From: a virus
Virus genome (UHGV): UHGV-0230172
Length of the DNA stretch: 15,951 bases
Reading direction: 5' to 3' (one strand)
The position numbers and the translations under genes are program-made. The notes beneath the pieces were generated by a model that saw only the letters and a list, made by a program, of their open reading frames with translations, made no database searches and was not told the DNA's origin. Shown here one piece after another: positions 2,520 to 11,179 of this stretch (position 1 is its first letter; each line of letters begins with the position of its first letter).

Positions 2520-2798
2520 TCATTTTTCCTCTTTTGGTTTATGAATCTGAATGGTCATGCCGCTTTGAGTGGTGACTACAACGACAGAACCAGGCTGAAG
2601 GCTGTTAAGATTGAATGCTTCGTAAAACGAATCCAATGCCAGTGCTTTTTTATTCTTTCGGTTCCACCAACGCCATCCCTTGCTACAGGCTACACTGACA
2701 ATCCACTGCCCACTCCTGTAAGCCATATAAAACCAGATGAGCAAAACCTGAAGGAATGCTATCCAGTCAATAATCGTATATTTCGCGAAGGCGTCCAT
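2520..2798 (-). CDS. Hypothetical small membrane protein
   Basis: 92 aa; hydrophobic N-terminal segment IIDWIAFLQVLLIWFYMAY; start overlaps the stop of the upstream ORF (TAATG), suggesting translational coupling. Confidence 0.55.
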   Translation of the reverse strand: MDAFAKYTIIDWIAFLQVLLIWFYMAYRSGQWIVSVACSKGWRWWNRKNKKALALDSFYEAFNLNSLQPGSVVVVTTQSGMTIQIHKPKEEK

Positions 2799-3094
2799 TA
2801 CTTCACCTCCTGCGGAGTAGCTTTTACAAGCACTGGTGTAAATCCATCTTCATTAAGGTTATGAATATAGACTTCTGTTCTCCTGCGCTCTTCAACGTTT
2901 AATATTGTTTCTGGATCATAAACCCATACTTTCATTCGACTATTCCATGAAGAAATCGCTTCAGATCTAGTTCGTTTTTCTGGTCCTTGGGCACCACATT
3001 TGCATGACACATAGCGCATTTTCCCTCTGATACTGAATGAGTATCCGATGTTAAGCACAGTGGAACCACAGAATGGGCAGCGATATAGATTCAT
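2798..3094 (-). CDS. Zinc-ribbon protein, possibly Lar-family restriction alleviation protein
   Basis: 98 aa; N-terminal CPFCG ... CKC zinc-ribbon pattern as I recall for Lar-family proteins; ATGA overlap with the upstream gene. Family assignment is from memory. Confidence 0.5.
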   Translation of the reverse strand: MNLYRCPFCGSTVLNIGYSFSIRGKMRYVSCKCGAQGPEKRTRSEAISSWNSRMKVWVYDPETILNVEERRRTEVYIHNLNEDGFTPVLVKATPQEVK

Positions 3095-3708
3095 AAATCA
3101 TCCACCTTAGGCGCAGCTGAGACAGCAACATTCCAGAACTCAGAAAACATATTGTATGCACCAGATAGATTGGAAGTGGCATACCCTCCAAGCTCACTTC
3201 TAATCTGAACGGCTCTCATCATTTCCGGTGTTAACTCCTTCGGCACCATAACCCAACCATCCGGAATTACCGGAGAGTTGCCCGACATCTCATTCAACTT
3301 GTAAGTTTGGCTTACAGGTTCGGCTTCCAGTTCTGCTATGCGCTTTTTTGCTGCTTCCAGCTCAACGCGCAGCCTCCCAACCGTAAGTGCAATATCCTCG
3401 TTCTCCTGGTCGCGGCGTTTGATGTATTGCTGGTTTCTTTCCCGTTCATCCAGCAGCGCCAAGACGGTAGCCGGATTGGCTGCGGCGATGAATTCAGCAT
3501 TGGCCTGCTGTTCCATTTGGAAATCTTCATCGAAACCGCTTTCTGGATGCGCTCCTTCAATTCTGCAAATGGGAATATATCCAGCAACTTCACGATGAAT
3601 TAACGCATCATCACCATCAAATCGGCTCTCTCCATATTCGATCGACCATACACCACACGTTGCTTTCTCTGCCTTTTCACGCAGTGCCTGATAATCAATC
3701 TTGCTCAC
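3091..3708 (-). CDS. Ea22-like (Ead/Ea22 family) protein
   Basis: GTG start at 3708 preceded by AGGAGG; gives MSKIDYQALREK... Contains AAANPATVLALLDERE plus a coiled-coil-like segment, as I recall for Ead/Ea22-like prophage proteins. Track ORF extends to 3801 but would overlap the upstream gene. Confidence 0.55.
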   Translation of the reverse strand: MSKIDYQALREKAEKATCGVWSIEYGESRFDGDDALIHREVAGYIPICRIEGAHPESGFDEDFQMEQQANAEFIAAANPATVLALLDERERNQQYIKRRDQENEDIALTVGRLRVELEAAKKRIAELEAEPVSQTYKLNEMSGNSPVIPDGWVMVPKELTPEMMRAVQIRSELGGYATSNLSGAYNMFSEFWNVAVSAAPKVDDL

Positions 3709-4012
3709 TGGCTGCCTCCTTTGCTGGGCTTTCGAACTTCTGAGTGGTTGTATCAAACTCAAGCAACTTAACCACGTCATCAAACAGGACATAATCGCCA
3801 TCAGAATCTTCAGTCATGTCAGCACCACAATCCTGACCGAACGAGTCACAACCATCCATATCAAGCTCGTATCGCTTGAGTTTTGCGATATTTGATAAAT
3901 TCAGCGCCAGTACAGCAAGGTCATAAACCTCTTCGGCGGTATATCCTGCACCATGCCCATACATTTCAATGCGCGATATGATTTCTTCTACTCGTTGTTT
4001 TGTGATTGTCAT
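3695..4012 (-). CDS. Hypothetical acidic protein
   Basis: 105 aa; ATG at 4012 preceded by AGGAGGAGGG; acidic C-terminal half. No family recognised. Confidence 0.55.
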   Translation of the reverse strand: MTITKQRVEEIISRIEMYGHGAGYTAEEVYDLAVLALNLSNIAKLKRYELDMDGCDSFGQDCGADMTEDSDGDYVLFDDVVKLLEFDTTTQKFESPAKEAASEQD

Positions 4013-4467
4013 TTTTGCCCTCCTCCTTTGCGAAGCTGGGCAGCAAAGTCACGAATAGTGCCATCAAGGTCTGGACACAACAGATTGTCAGCAAACATCT
4101 CAACCCCCTGCGCCCGTACTTCAGCCAGGAAAGCATCGGTGGCTGGGGTTTTGATTTCGTTAAGCGCATCACTGAATCCACCTCTCTCCATACCTAGCTC
4201 TGCTTCGTAATCGGCATCGAATGCAGCGTCTTTGCAGAACTTCTTCATCCCCGCACTCTCCGCTGCCAGCGCCGCGCACTTGGCCTCAAGGTTATCAATC
4301 GTGATTCCAGCAGAACGACACTCCCGCAACGCCGTTTCCAGTTTTGATTCAAGTTCACCGAACTTACGGACAAGATATTCAGCGTTTGTTTCGTTGACCT
4401 TTAAATCTCGTGGTATGCATTTACCTTTCAGAAATCCATCCATCTCAATTAGTGACATTAGTTTCAT
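4009..4467 (-). CDS. Hypothetical protein
   Basis: Track ORF starts at a GTG (4485); the ATG at 4467 ([11 protein letters not shown]...) overlaps the upstream stop as ATGA. No family recognised. Confidence 0.55.
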
Positions 4468-4646
4468 TTCTTCCCACTCCGCCACATCGCATTCAGATAT
4501 TTGTTGTCATTAACAGAACCGAAACTATTTCTCTTAAGCAATTCCTCTCTCGATGGCATTGGCTTTACGCGCTGGCGAATAATCATTTCTGCCGGAAGAA
4601 TGCCGGGATTGTATGCAAGTCCTCTCATGGTAAATTCCTCAGTCAT
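4464..4646 (-). CDS. Hypothetical small protein
   Basis: Start placed at the ATG at 4646 (MTEEF...), just inside the upstream gene's stop; an alternative ATG at 4628 has AGGA 7 nt upstream. Start uncertain. Confidence 0.4.
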
Positions 4647-4935
4647 TACTGATAGCGCCATAGCGTGATCGGTAATTACGCAGGCGCGGGTCGATATATT
4701 CAGGGAATTTGTCTATTGTCGCTTTTCGCAACGGTCTCATTGCTGTTTCGTTTGTTCGGTCCTTCTCATCTTTTAACGCGAGTTGTATATCGCGTCGGTA
4801 CATCCGTTCTGCTTTTGTTTCTGGTGGCAGATCAATAAACGTGTCGAAAATGTTTTTGATATTTTCCAGCACCTCCGCCTTGGAGCTACCGGAGCAATTG
4901 CGCGGGTCATCCGCACCATACTGAGGCGCTGGCAT
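4639..4935 (-). CDS. Hypothetical protein
   Basis: 98 aa; ATG at 4935 preceded by AGGAGA. No family recognised. Confidence 0.55.
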
Positions 4936-4948
4936 GATTTTCTCCTGA

Positions 4949-5428
4949 TTAAATTGCGTGAATAGCGTGACGAGGGAAGGGGAGAGTTACTGGTTCCTCG
5001 TCTGGGTAGATAGGTTTGTTATGTTTGTGCCACTCGACATGACATGACTTGCAGAGCCACATCACATCGGTTGGTTTGCTGTAGTCGCAGTGGTTCGCCT
5101 GTGGTTTACATTCTGATCCGCAGCACTCACATTGTGGTGGTCGGATTAGCTTACCGTCGCGCAAAAAATTACCCACGATGATGTGGGCTTTTCTTTTCCA
5201 TGGGTTGCTCTGAATGAACCGCTTTTTGGCTGCGTTACACCGTTCTCTGCCGCGTTCCGATGATTGATATTCTCTCCTTGCTGATACTCGATGTGGCAAT
5301 CCCGCGCGCTCTTTGTCGTATTCAGCCAGGCAAGCCCGGCAAGCGGCAGTTAATCCATCTCTGGATGCTCTTCTGATTTGAAAGTCCCTTTCTTCCTTCT
5401 GTTGATGGCATCTTGAGCAGATTTTCAT
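4949..5428 (-). CDS. Cys-rich zinc-finger protein with HNH-like C-terminal motif
   Basis: 159 aa; N-terminal CSRC ... CRAC; C-terminal CECCG ... ANHCDY ... WLCKSCHVEWH resembles the HNH zinc-finger nuclease motif. AGGAG 7 nt upstream of the ATG. Confidence 0.55.
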   Translation of the reverse strand: MKICSRCHQQKEERDFQIRRASRDGLTAACRACLAEYDKERAGLPHRVSARREYQSSERGRERCNAAKKRFIQSNPWKRKAHIIVGNFLRDGKLIRPPQCECCGSECKPQANHCDYSKPTDVMWLCKSCHVEWHKHNKPIYPDEEPVTLPFPRHAIHAI

Positions 5429-5437
5429 ATTCAGCTC

Positions 5438-5908
5438 CTAGAACGGAATATCCGAATCGTCGAAGTTCATAGGTGGTTCGCTGTGATTTCCATGCTGCTG
5501 ATGTTGCTGTCTTTGTTGATGACCGTTATTTCGCTGAGGTGAAGACTGTTCATTGCCTCCTTGCTTGCCACCAAGCATTTGCATGGTTCCACCAACGCCT
5601 ACGATAACTTCGGTAGTGAACCTATCCTGTCCGCTTTGATCCTGCCATTTTCTTGTCCGTAATTTGCCTTCAAGATAAACCTCAGAGCCTTTTCGCAGAT
5701 ATTCGCTGGCAATTTCTGCCAGTTTCCCGCTCATTACCACGCGGTGCCACTCCGTCTGCTCCTTTTGCTCTCCAGTTTGCTTATCACGCCATTGTTCTGA
5801 CGTGGCAACTGTAAGGTTTGCAAATGCCGTTCCTGATGGTGAATAGCGCACCTCAGGATCTTGGCCTAATCTACCGATAATGATTACGCGATTAACTCCA
5901 CGTCCCAT
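5438..5908 (-). CDS. ssb: Single-stranded DNA-binding protein
   Basis: [26 protein letters not shown] ... TEWHRVV ... GQDRFTTEV ... GGTMQMLGG and C-terminal DDSDIPF tail closely parallel E. coli SSB. Start set at the ATG at 5908 (GGAGA upstream), not the track's upstream start. Confidence 0.92.
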
Positions 5909-6419
5909 TTTTATTTCTCCTGCGAGTAATCCCTGCCTCAGCATCCTCTTTCCTGTGAAGTGATGCGTGCTCGGATATGGTAAGAAGTTGAAGGTTAGAA
6001 GGGTGGTTATTAAGTTTATTTCTATCTTTGTGGTGTACTTGCTCGTTTGGATTTAATCGCCTTCCAATCAGTGATTCCATGACAATTACATGCTCAGTGC
6101 GACCCTTGTGAGCACCCCGTGTGAATTCCTTATATCCCGCGCTATTTATCCTAAACCCTATGGCAGTTTTATCAGCTTTCATGAGCTTTGCAGCACTTAT
6201 ATTCCTCTTCCACTCTTCGCTAAAGAGTCTTTTCTTCCCTTTATTCTTCCCAAGCCTACCGTCACTTGCAGCCATGCGAACTCCATCAGTTCTATTTCGC
6301 AATACTCCAGCTTTCTTGCACTGATGCCTGACGGTTGATTTTGGAATTCCGGTAATTAAAGAAACCTGAGGAATGCTCATGCCAGAGGCGTAAAGCTCAA
6401 CTGCGCTTCTGCTTGCCAT
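5892..6419 (-). CDS. HNH endonuclease with N-terminal helix-turn-helix region
   Basis: 175 aa; canonical HNH motif [28 protein letters not shown]; sits between the annealing protein and ssb, overlapping the ssb start by 17 nt. Confidence 0.85.
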
Positions 6420-7127
6420 TTATGCCGCCTGTTTTAGCTCGTTAACTCTGATGTTCATTACCTGAACGCATTTAGCCTGCGCCTCCTCGTTGCCAGCCAT
6501 TAATTGCCAGTCACGCTGATAACGCTCGATGAGTTTTTTCTTATCAGTTTCTGTTGACGCATAATCGCTGAAGTCTTTCAGGATTTGCTCGCAGTCAACC
6601 GATGGAGATTTCTGGTTGGTATTTTCTGGTGATGGTTTGTTATCTGATGCTGGTATTGCCCATCCCGGCAGCGATGGAGGGAACCAGTAAAATCCTGTTC
6701 CATCCTTGAGTTTTGCCCTGTGCCATCCCTGCTTTTTATCGAGAGATGTTTGTGCGAAACCTTCCTCAAGGTTATACAGATACCGACCGATTCCCCACTG
6801 AACGGCAGCGCGCTTCATTGCACCGGAACGACCACCTTTGACGGCTTCTACCTGCGTGTTTTCAGCAGCATCCCATTTGGTTACCCATTCGGAATCAATC
6901 TTTATTGATATGCCGCATTCAACGCCGCCGTTGTTGGGAATATCGCGGTATTCATTGCGCCATCCTGCTTTGCCGCAAACATCGTCCAGGCGTTTCATGA
7001 TTGCCCGGTTCGTGACATAAGCCAGCACCATAGCCCACACTTTGCCATCGCGTGTTTTACCGCTTTGCTGTATTCGCCATTCGATATCTTCAGGGCTGAA
7101 TGGCTCATCGAATTTATTCAAATCCAT
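6420..7127 (-). CDS. Single-strand annealing recombinase, Rad52/Sak-like
   Basis: 235 aa; motif GGRSGAMKRAAVQWGIGRYLY resembles the conserved core of Rad52/22-family phage annealing proteins; occupies the position of bet in lambda. Family assignment from memory. Confidence 0.6.
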   Translation of the reverse strand: MDLNKFDEPFSPEDIEWRIQQSGKTRDGKVWAMVLAYVTNRAIMKRLDDVCGKAGWRNEYRDIPNNGGVECGISIKIDSEWVTKWDAAENTQVEAVKGGRSGAMKRAAVQWGIGRYLYNLEEGFAQTSLDKKQGWHRAKLKDGTGFYWFPPSLPGWAIPASDNKPSPENTNQKSPSVDCEQILKDFSDYASTETDKKKLIERYQRDWQLMAGNEEAQAKCVQVMNIRVNELKQAA

Positions 7128-7135
7128 AATTCACC

Positions 7136-7306
7136 TCAGAATGGACACGGCCCAAGGAAATAACGCTGATTTAATACTTCGACTCGAGACAAATTAAGGC
7201 ATACCCGCATTCCTTCGCGGTCGCCATTATGGCGATACCAGAGAGCTTTCTGCGTGTACATACGTCTCTGTAACTTGCTCTCCTTCACTGTGGTTGCAAG
7301 TGACAT
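7136..7306 (-). CDS. Small ORF (56 aa), hypothetical
   Basis: Below the track cutoff; ATG at 7306 preceded by GAAGGAGAT; its stop sits 8 nt upstream of the annealing-protein ATG. Overlaps the 7227..7385 ORF in another frame. Confidence 0.3.
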   Translation of the reverse strand: MSLATTVKESKLQRRMYTQKALWYRHNGDREGMRVCLNLSRVEVLNQRYFLGPCPF

Positions 7307-7385
7307 GAATATCTCCTTCGTTACCGATTAATTCTTTCATCTGACGAATGAATTCTTCGTCTGACCAGTTATCTGTAAAACTCAT
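7227..7385 (-). CDS. Small ORF (52 aa), hypothetical
   Basis: Below the track cutoff; ATG overlaps the stop of the Kil-like ORF (ATGA). Acidic; no family recognised. Confidence 0.3.
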   Translation of the reverse strand: MSFTDNWSDEEFIRQMKELIGNEGDIHVTCNHSEGEQVTETYVHAESSLVSP

Positions 7386-7534
7386 TTCCTGCGATACCAT
7401 GGAAGGTTGATAGCTGATTTCATCGCTTTATTTGCTTCAAGCCACATTTTTGAATCACCAATAAATCTGGCTATTACTGCTTTGTTTTGTGCCGCACGAA
7501 GCATCTGGTGATTAATGGCTATTTCATTGCGCAT
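7382..7534 (-). CDS. Kil-like small protein (candidate host division inhibitor)
   Basis: 50 aa, below the track cutoff; start overlaps the cIII stop, as kil does in lambda; contains ARFIGDSKMW, which resembles my memory of lambda Kil. Unverified. Confidence 0.4.
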   Translation of the reverse strand: MRNEIAINHQMLRAAQNKAVIARFIGDSKMWLEANKAMKSAINLPWYRRK

Positions 7535-10164: not shown

Positions 10165-10881
<717 letters not shown>

Positions 10882-10883
10882 TT

Positions 10884-10954
10884 AAATCTATCACCGCAAG
10901 GGATAAATATCTAACACCGTGCGTGTTGACTATTTTACCTCTGGCGGTGATAAT
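10884..10954. promoter_or_regulatory. Right operator with divergent promoters pRM and pR
   Basis: oR3 TATCACCGCAAGGGATA (10889..10905), oR2 TAACACCGTGCGTGTTG (10912..10928), oR1 TACCTCTGGCGGTGATA (10936..10952); pR -35 TTGACT (10926..10931) and -10 GATAAT (10949..10954); pRM hexamers TAGATA/TAGATT on the minus strand. All match lambda. Confidence 0.92.
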
Positions 10955-10969
10955 AGTTGCATGTACTAA

Positions 10970-11179
<210 letters not shown>

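Follow-up and report, generated by a model that had tools for sequence, protein, structure and literature searches.

We analyzed the recombination module in a 15,951-nt stretch of the virus genome UHGV-0230172 (the window, meaning that stretch at its full length) and read it, with a probability of about 0.8, as an ES18-type module built on the anti-RecBCD protein Abc2, which would need no exonuclease (Exo) of its own and which carries a selfish homing gene, HNH-A, at the start of the single-stranded DNA-binding protein gene, ssb. The genes of the module all lie on the minus strand, in the early-left operon of a lambdoid genome. The four open reading frames (ORFs) that a first-pass annotation had described here, encoding a Rad52-like protein, an HNH protein, an SSB and a Cys-rich protein, are confirmed in position and strand by ORF calls and domain matches. 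The features on which the argument turns are the following.

6420–7127, minus strand: Rad52-like single-strand annealing protein (SSAP); Pfam Rad52_Rad22 PF04098, 5e-26; PHROG 1097 "Erf-like SSAP," 4.8e-130
5892–6419, minus strand: HNH-A, HNH_3 endonuclease; Pfam HNH_3, 2e-10; weak N-terminal helix-turn-helix (HTH)
5846–6407, minus strand: approximate extent of donor-type DNA, comprising the HNH-A cassette and a co-conversion tract of ~63 nt, with recoded ssb codons 1–21 included
5438–5908, minus strand: ssb, bacterial-type SSB of 156 amino acids (aa) ending in ...DSDIPF; Pfam SSB PF00436, 9.8e-39; TIGR00621, 2.2e-53
4949–5428, minus strand: predicted Cys-rich Zn-ribbon HNH-type nuclease of 159 aa (the second nuclease), homolog of Sf6 gp26, I-KsaII family; PHROG 2340 "endonuclease," 3.2e-46
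4949–4993, minus strand: 45-nt tail segment, PVTLPFPRHAIHAI plus stop codon, the C terminus of the second nuclease in the window
4639–4935, minus strand: abc2, P22-type anti-RecBCD protein 2; Pfam Anti-RecBCD_p2 PF11043, 2.5e-34, full length

Module Type and the Absence of Exo

Profile searches of the ten ORFs between 2798 and 7127 against Pfam and PHROGs gave no match to the lambda Exo, RecE or YqaJ families, bearing out the first-pass observation that no Exo is recognizable, and the same scans of the module ORFs gave no match to Gam. The missing Exo poses no puzzle for which an HNH protein would be needed: the full-length abc2 gene at 4639–4935 had been overlooked. Besides its Pfam match, the Abc2 protein matches PHROG 656 (1.9e-43) and the P22 Abc2 chain in the Protein Data Bank (PDB 8B1T chain A, 8.3e-31, residues 1–98 against 1–97). 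In the Murphy model, as summarized in a structural study of RecBCD with Abc2, Abc2 binds RecC and hijacks RecBCD to make single-stranded DNA for phage recombination (PMC9836394). Phages with Abc2 are characteristically without an exonuclease, and the co-opted host RecBCD is thought to supply the activity (PMC9836394). We propose that the window module has no Exo because Abc2-type phages borrow the host RecBCD. By analogy with these phages, the absence of Exo is the expected state and calls for no new explanation, and the window module would depend on RecBCD.

The module itself is of an already known type. A 2025 survey of 325 lambdoid phages distinguished 13 functional types of Rec module (PMC12315714). 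Its "ES18" type combines an anti-RecBCD protein, SSB, a nuclease and an annealing protein and comprises 25 phages (PMC12315714, Table 1), and its "HK75" type, with 27 phages, is the ES18 gene set minus the nuclease (PMC12315714). Between 4639 and 7127 the window holds contiguous genes for an anti-RecBCD protein, SSB, a nuclease and an annealing protein, which is the ES18-type gene set, the assignment being made by gene content alone. Sf6 genes 25–28 are collinear with this module, and the SSB, nuclease and annealing protein are 97–99% identical between the two. Unlike these three genes upstream of it, abc2 encodes a protein with only ~61–62% identity to its counterparts in Sf6 and IME10. A mosaic breakpoint lies near 4949, immediately past the tail and stop codon of the second nuclease (window 4639–4935 compared with loci L001, L002 and L019–L025).

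HNH-A Sits at the Start of ssb

The HNH gene is wedged before ssb and overlaps its start, as had been noted, with a refinement of that start. The longest ssb ORF covers 5438–5944; translation almost certainly begins at the ATG at 5908 (MGRGVNR), judging from the AGGAGA before it and from the same annotation in phage yong1 and E. coli 20AR1039. With ssb starting at 5908, the stop codon of HNH-A overlaps ssb by 17 nt.

In Sf6, IME10 and mEp235, which lack HNH-A, the stop codon of the annealing-protein gene abuts the ssb start ATGGCAAGCAGAGGCGTAAATAAG (MASRGVNK). In the window, the identical TAA-ATGGCAAGCAGA begins HNH-A instead (MASRS...). The former ssb start now forms the first 4–6 codons of HNH-A (MASR..), and a new ssb start, ATGGGACGTGGAGTTAATCGC (MGRGVNR), is provided jointly by the final 17 nt of HNH-A and the upstream AGGAGA. 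The proteins on either side are those of Sf6-like phages: the annealing protein, whose Rad52_Rad22 match covers residues 4–136, is 99% identical to Sf6 gp28 and to the IME10 protein, and SSB is 97% identical to Sf6 gp27 from residue 3 onward.

Binned identities place the edges of the foreign segment closely. Upstream of ~6407 the window is 99% identical to Sf6 and IME10, and downstream of ~5845 it is 96–100% identical to them, with a transition bin of 88% at ssb nt 50–109. The body of HNH-A is 93–98% identical to three IMG/VR contigs (L005–L007), and the first 49 nt of ssb are 88–90% identical to the same contigs, the flanks of which match the window at 36–56% upstream and 65–80% downstream. 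The donor tract ends within ssb near 5846, and ssb codons 1–21 are recoded. This sharp mosaic of identity indicates that a cassette of ~560 nt, including a ~63-nt ssb co-conversion tract, was placed into an Sf6-like background. By these comparisons HNH-A is a free-standing homing-type insertion, a reading that the first-pass annotation had offered for the 5892–6419 gene and that is supported by its absence from near-identical relatives, by the precise mosaic boundaries and by the constant target at the ssb start.

HNH-A Encodes an Intact, Selected HNH Protein

The match of HNH-A to HNH_3 scores 40.6 bits against a cutoff of 24.8. Its motif VHHKD..N..NL..EH..LH is intact, and residues V128, H129, H130, D132, N137, N142, L143 and H151 are invariant across nine HNH-A homologs. 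An N-terminal HTH is suggested by matches to HTH_23 (0.0023) and Sigma70_r4_2 (0.0024), both under the Pfam cutoffs. The Pfam search gave no NUMOD match in HNH-A, the central motif of which we take to resemble NUMOD3, and a PDB sequence search with the HNH-A profile returned no match. Every copy of HNH-A is 528 nt long, with a ratio of nonsynonymous to synonymous substitution rates (dN/dS) of 0.05–0.08. This ratio, together with the invariant catalytic residues, indicates that the protein is kept by selection, and HNH-A is a predicted functional nuclease gene.

HNH-A Is Rare and Linked to ssb

A megablast search of 5,426 complete E. coli genomes found HNH-A in one, within a prophage whose immunity region is different. 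A 301-nt probe over the uninterrupted Sf6 junction matched 368 E. coli genomes at a coverage of at least 80%. As BLAST pieces separated by no more than 650 nt were merged, a few of these junctions may in fact be interrupted; all nine of the full-coverage rows sampled were single pieces. Hafnia phage yong1 is the only phage record with HNH-A, at 76% nucleotide identity. A profile scan of the GTDB species representatives gave one full-length relative, in Pantoea piersonii, and an earlier contig scan with single-sequence peptide patterns gave no relative.

Homologs of HNH-A lie directly 5′ of ssb in 10 IMG/VR contigs, in yong1 and in Pantoea. Nine of the 10 contig homologs share 77–97% aa identity with HNH-A and one (L014) shares 43%. 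The nine close homologs, yong1 and Pantoea have the same 17-nt overlap, and the gene upstream is Rad52-like, AAA_24/Sak4-like or ERF. In L014 the HNH gene stands behind an unrelated small ORF, and its start, MASVNKVI, copies the start of the ssb that follows, MASLNKVQI. For L005–L007, HNH identity is 97% vs. an SSB identity of 74–77%. As judged from these neighborhoods, HNH-A is linked to ssb and not to any recombinase family.

An Unrelated HNH Gene Occupies the Same ssb Codons

One match of the junction probe led to another HNH gene, HNH-B, which encodes a protein of 155 aa with matches to HNH_3 (1.1e-13) and zf-His_Me_endon (1.8e-4) and a C-terminal HTH, and which has no significant similarity to HNH-A. 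HNH-B is present in 41 of the 5,426 E. coli genomes, with all copies at least 99% identical. Like HNH-A, it starts at the former ssb ATG, and it gives ssb the start ATGAGTTCTCGCGGGATA in place of ATGGCAAGCAGAGGCGTA. Codons 1–6 are recoded, with all five codons after the ATG altered, and four of these five changes leave the encoded residue the same or nearly equivalent. The HNH-B-bearing sequence is identical to HK75 from codon 7 on. By sequence, then, HNH-A and HNH-B, though unrelated, have converged on the same 18–20 nt, each recoding that stretch. Such convergence with recoding is what the target-site immunity of homing endonucleases predicts, and it is the strongest argument against passive mosaicism. 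The HNH proteins would act by cleaving the ssb start.

In the mechanism that we propose, the module would work as in P22: Abc2 would bind RecC and redirect the host RecBCD to resect DNA ends, phage SSB would coat the single strand, and the Rad52-like protein would then anneal it. HNH-A is inserted within approximately the first six ssb codons and is translated from the old ssb start codon and ribosome-binding site. Its 3′ end brings a new ribosome-binding site, a new start and a recoded ssb N terminus (MGRGVNR... for MASRGVNK...), restoring ssb, and this recoding presumably destroys HNH-A's own recognition site. In a mixed infection, HNH-A would cleave the ssb start of a related phage that lacks the HNH gene, and repair from the HNH-bearing copy would transfer the gene with a short flanking tract. 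The insertion anatomy is observed directly; the cleavage and repair are what we infer.

The Second Nuclease Gene

The protein encoded at 4949–5428 gave no Pfam or NCBIfam match, and none of the 51 homologs that we collected has a Pfam nuclease domain. The family alignment contains two N-terminal Cys pairs and a C-terminal block, C..C...AHH.DY.KP..V.WLC..CH..WH. An AlphaFold model built from this alignment (predicted local distance difference test score, pLDDT, of 90) has a beta-beta-alpha unit at residues 110–136 and a disordered tail at residues 147–159. The HNH motifs of this protein and of HNH-A align by pairwise BLASTP (E 0.017). A tblastn search of phage genomes matched 511 records, among them I-KsaII (34% identity, 84% coverage, E 2e-19). 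I-KsaII is encoded within a group I intron that interrupts polA in Staphylococcus Kayvirus phages, and these introns have been described together with their putative endonucleases (PMC5618024). By this indirect evidence the second nuclease is a predicted I-KsaII-family HNH-type nuclease, and it is most likely of homing-endonuclease origin.

Its sole difference from Sf6 gp26 is H112N (window ~5093–5095). Homologs have His at position 112 in at least 90% of cases, Sf6 gp26 and I-KsaII among them; H113, H130 and H134 are intact in the window. In other HNH enzymes the first His of the HH pair helps to bind the catalytic metal. The window copy may be an attenuated or inactive allele.

Comparison of relatives separates the two HNH genes: the first is not conserved, Sf6 and IME10 lacking it, and the second is widely conserved beside ssb. 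HK75, ECP1 and L018 are without the second nuclease, which is thus locally dispensable. In L008 a 92%-identical nuclease follows a 68%-identical SSB, and in L032 a 47%-identical nuclease stands behind the same annealing protein. From these pairings, the history of the second nuclease is discordant with that of ssb. Six proteins (P0011, P0014, P0020, P0037, P0044 and P0045) consist of a partial gp26-like nuclease fused to SSB or to a Rv2179c-like/DnaQ-type 3′–5′ exonuclease, and such fusions are probably products of deletions or frame fusions in the slot. In some relatives a DnaQ-type exonuclease gene follows ssb and precedes abc2. The idea that nuclease and DnaQ-type exonuclease are alternative occupants of one slot was ruled out by the prophage of E. 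coli 20AR1039 (L017), which has HNH-A, a gp26-like nuclease and a DnaQ-type 3′–5′ exonuclease together. The intact gp26-like nuclease gene of this prophage (L017:8058–8537; NZ_CM132269.1, ~1583430–1583909) is unannotated in the RefSeq record. Yet another HNH endonuclease gene is annotated in this prophage, in the interval from cII to the replication genes (L017:13605–14033).

A 45-nt Tail Shared Between Nuclease and SSB

The last 45 nt of the second nuclease gene (4949–4993) recur unchanged as the 3′ end of ssb in mEp235, HK75 and L018, where SSB runs on in frame beyond ...DDDIPF with APVTLPFPRHAIHAI; an SSB whose IPF tip is not C terminal is odd. Among the loci retrieved, 15 carry the tail on the nuclease and 8 carry it on SSB, and none has it on both. 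The ssb 3′ ends that bear the 14-aa peptide PVTLPFPRHAIHAI are those of L004, L010–L013, L018, L138 and L139. The tail is absent from the distant nuclease homologs and canonical SSBs that were compared. In the model of the window protein it is disordered, with pLDDT below 50. The tail DNA of L010 differs mostly at synonymous positions, which suggests that the peptide is under selection, 14 codons being thin evidence. The second nuclease thus fills the slot between the ...IPF codon of SSB and the 45-nt tail. A simple insertion of the nuclease into the ssb 3′ end was considered, and this account had to be softened, as an in-frame deletion fits equally well: because the tail is not part of either the SSB or the nuclease family, insertion and in-frame deletion are indistinguishable.

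Alternative Explanations for the Two Nuclease Genes

HNH-A might be a passive passenger ("moron"), moved by ordinary recombination at gene boundaries for which the ssb start was merely a convenient crossover. Lambdoid genomes are highly mosaic, with module boundaries often at gene junctions, and the window itself switches partner after the tail, where abc2 is only ~61% identical; ordinary mosaic recombination of this kind could also yield presence and absence with sharp boundaries, which weighs against homing. However, passive crossover would hardly produce two unrelated HNH genes in the same 18–20 nt, both taking the ssb ATG and recoding the codons there, which target-site immunity predicts, nor does a passive role sit well with an intact, selected nuclease that has a predicted DNA-binding domain. 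We consider such passive movement unlikely. HNH-A might also serve as the nuclease partner of the Rad52-like annealing protein, substituting for lambda Exo. The gene is packed tightly between the annealing-protein gene and ssb and translationally coupled to both, and it is under strong purifying selection. Both that selection and the position before ssb, which HNH-A keeps even where synonymous divergence is saturated, would also be expected of a protein that benefits the phage, and they count against a selfish gene. In contrast, ~368 E. coli genomes lack HNH-A, as do Sf6, IME10, N7, HK75 and mEp235, all with a 99%-identical annealing protein. The E. coli genomes have the annealing-protein/ssb pair without this HNH protein, which therefore cannot be the obligatory partner that the first-pass suggestion of an HNH nuclease might imply. 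Furthermore, HNH-A tracks ssb rather than a particular annealing-protein family, end resection is already accounted for by Abc2, and an architecture of HTH and HNH_3 is typical of site-specific homing enzymes. A partnership with the annealing protein is therefore highly improbable. A point of a different kind counts against the assignment to a P22-like Abc2 module: no ORF matched the Abc1 family in Pfam or PHROGs, and Arf was not recognized, no search having been aimed at it.

A homing reading meets its most serious challenge in the second nuclease, which could be a working member of the module, a nicking or structure-specific HNH enzyme that would cooperate with SSB and the annealing protein, for example to generate ends or to process intermediates, with the homology to I-KsaII reflecting shared ancestry only. 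Of its 80 most similar IMG/VR loci, which all these neighborhood counts cover, 40 have the second nuclease immediately 3′ of a canonical ssb, down to ~35% identity, and in at least 12 further loci it adjoins YqaJ (8), RecT (2) or ERF (2) genes. The T1-like phage ACG-M12 has the order RecE-Erf-SSB-endonuclease, and Vibrio phage D80 has SSB-endonuclease. This recurrent pairing with ssb and recombinase genes tells against homing and argues for a functional link over pure selfishness. The DnaQ-type exonuclease found after ssb in some relatives points the same way, as does a weak fold match of the second nuclease to the P1 Ref HNH nuclease, and the tight packing of the ES18 module has been taken to argue that its HNH gene is probably a legitimate member (PMC12315714). 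On the other hand, relatives free of the nuclease are about as many, with 27 HK75-type vs. 25 ES18-type phages, the family includes an intron-encoded protein, and the co-occurrence with the DnaQ-type exonuclease in E. coli 20AR1039 means that the two are not simple alternatives. Decayed fusions also exist, and the window copy itself is altered, by H112N, at a near-invariant residue. We regard a working role for the second nuclease as a possibility of some weight but on balance doubtful.

Neighboring Genes and Other Features of the Window

The genes flanking those listed above are as follows.

7382–7534, minus strand: kil, Pfam Lambda_Kil PF06301, 1.7e-20; marks the upstream edge of the module
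7136–7306 and 7227–7400, minus strand: two overlapping small ORFs between kil and the annealing-protein gene, homologs of Sf6 gp29/gp30 (100% and 96% identity)
4464–4661, minus strand: DUF2737 small protein, Pfam 7.9e-30, a conserved abc2 neighbor in such modules, also in Sf6, mEp235 and HK75
3091–3801 and 2798–3094: Ead/Ea22-like gene and Lar-like restriction-alleviation gene, downstream of the module, as in Sf6

The two small ORFs at 7136–7400 gave no Pfam match, and their position is presumably that of arf in P22. A PDB sequence search with the annealing protein returned no match. Its residues 152–235 (window 6420–6675) are 37–38% identical to the C terminus of ERF-type proteins (L010–L012:2746–2997). 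The C-terminal ~85 residues common to Rad52-type and ERF-type annealing proteins may be a shared partner-binding domain, judging from this similarity, and the shared C terminus is consistent with the "Erf domain swaps" described for epsilon34 (PMC2629481). In L018 (210–3470), the Rad52-like annealing-protein gene is interrupted by an IS66-family element (ISCro1). The immunity region of the window, at 10165–11179, encodes a 237-aa LexA-family repressor and a 66-aa Cro, which we take to resemble lambda cI and cro. None of the complete E. coli genomes matches the window over its full length.

Relation to Known Systems and Significance

The closest functional model for the module is the P22 Erf/Abc system. 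Common to both are a full-length Abc2 homolog, an annealing protein of the Rad52/Erf superfamily, the lack of a phage exonuclease, and an early-left position between kil and the ea/int region; P22 differs in having abc1 at the position that ssb and the HNH-type nuclease fill in the window. The modules of Sf6, IME10 and the ES18 type differ in that no HNH gene separates the annealing-protein gene from ssb. With lambda Red (Exo-Bet-Gam) the window module shares its genomic position and its task, recombination and replication restart from DNA ends, but Exo and Gam are absent from the window, the annealing protein is Rad52-like rather than Bet, and RecBCD would be modified, as in P22, rather than blocked. 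The apparent anomaly of a recombination module without Exo is thereby removed, as this state is normal for Abc2 phages.

Free-standing, intronless homing endonuclease genes are known in phages from the seg and mob genes of T4. HNH-A resembles these as a small nuclease gene that borders a conserved gene of DNA metabolism and occurs sporadically among close relatives, with a short co-conversion tract and an altered target in the carrier. It differs in its temperate lambdoid host, in its target, the first ssb codons, and in taking the start codon and ribosome-binding site of the target gene and supplying a replacement; its cleavage activity is a prediction. On this comparison HNH-A belongs to an already described class of selfish element, of which it is a new and rare example. 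The second nuclease and I-KsaII have in common the N-terminal Cys pairs and the AHH.DY.KP...WLC..CH motif. I-KsaII, itself only a putative endonuclease in the literature searched, is encoded by an intron inside polA, whereas the second nuclease is free-standing and follows ssb, and the window copy has N for the first H of the HH pair.

HNH-A thus offers a clean natural case of homing-endonuclease invasion in temperate lambdoid phages, with boundaries defined to the nucleotide and with capture of a start codon, and a second unrelated element on the same 18–20 nt adds to the value of the example. As candidate site-specific enzymes, HNH-A and HNH-B have a target that can be predicted, namely the conserved start of ssb. 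For the classification of Rec modules, and for mining them for recombineering tools, the case is a caution that not every HNH gene in such a module is a recombination nuclease. More tentatively, and at somewhat less than even odds, ssb may be a two-ended homing target in enterobacterial lambdoid phages, contested at codons 1–6 by at least two unrelated HNH genes and occupied at its C-terminal codons by the I-KsaII-family nuclease that is counted as the nuclease of Sf6-like Rec modules. If so, Sf6-like modules would be HK75-type modules carrying a parasite, and such elements could bias the inheritance of Rec modules in mixed infections with the many HNH-less prophages.

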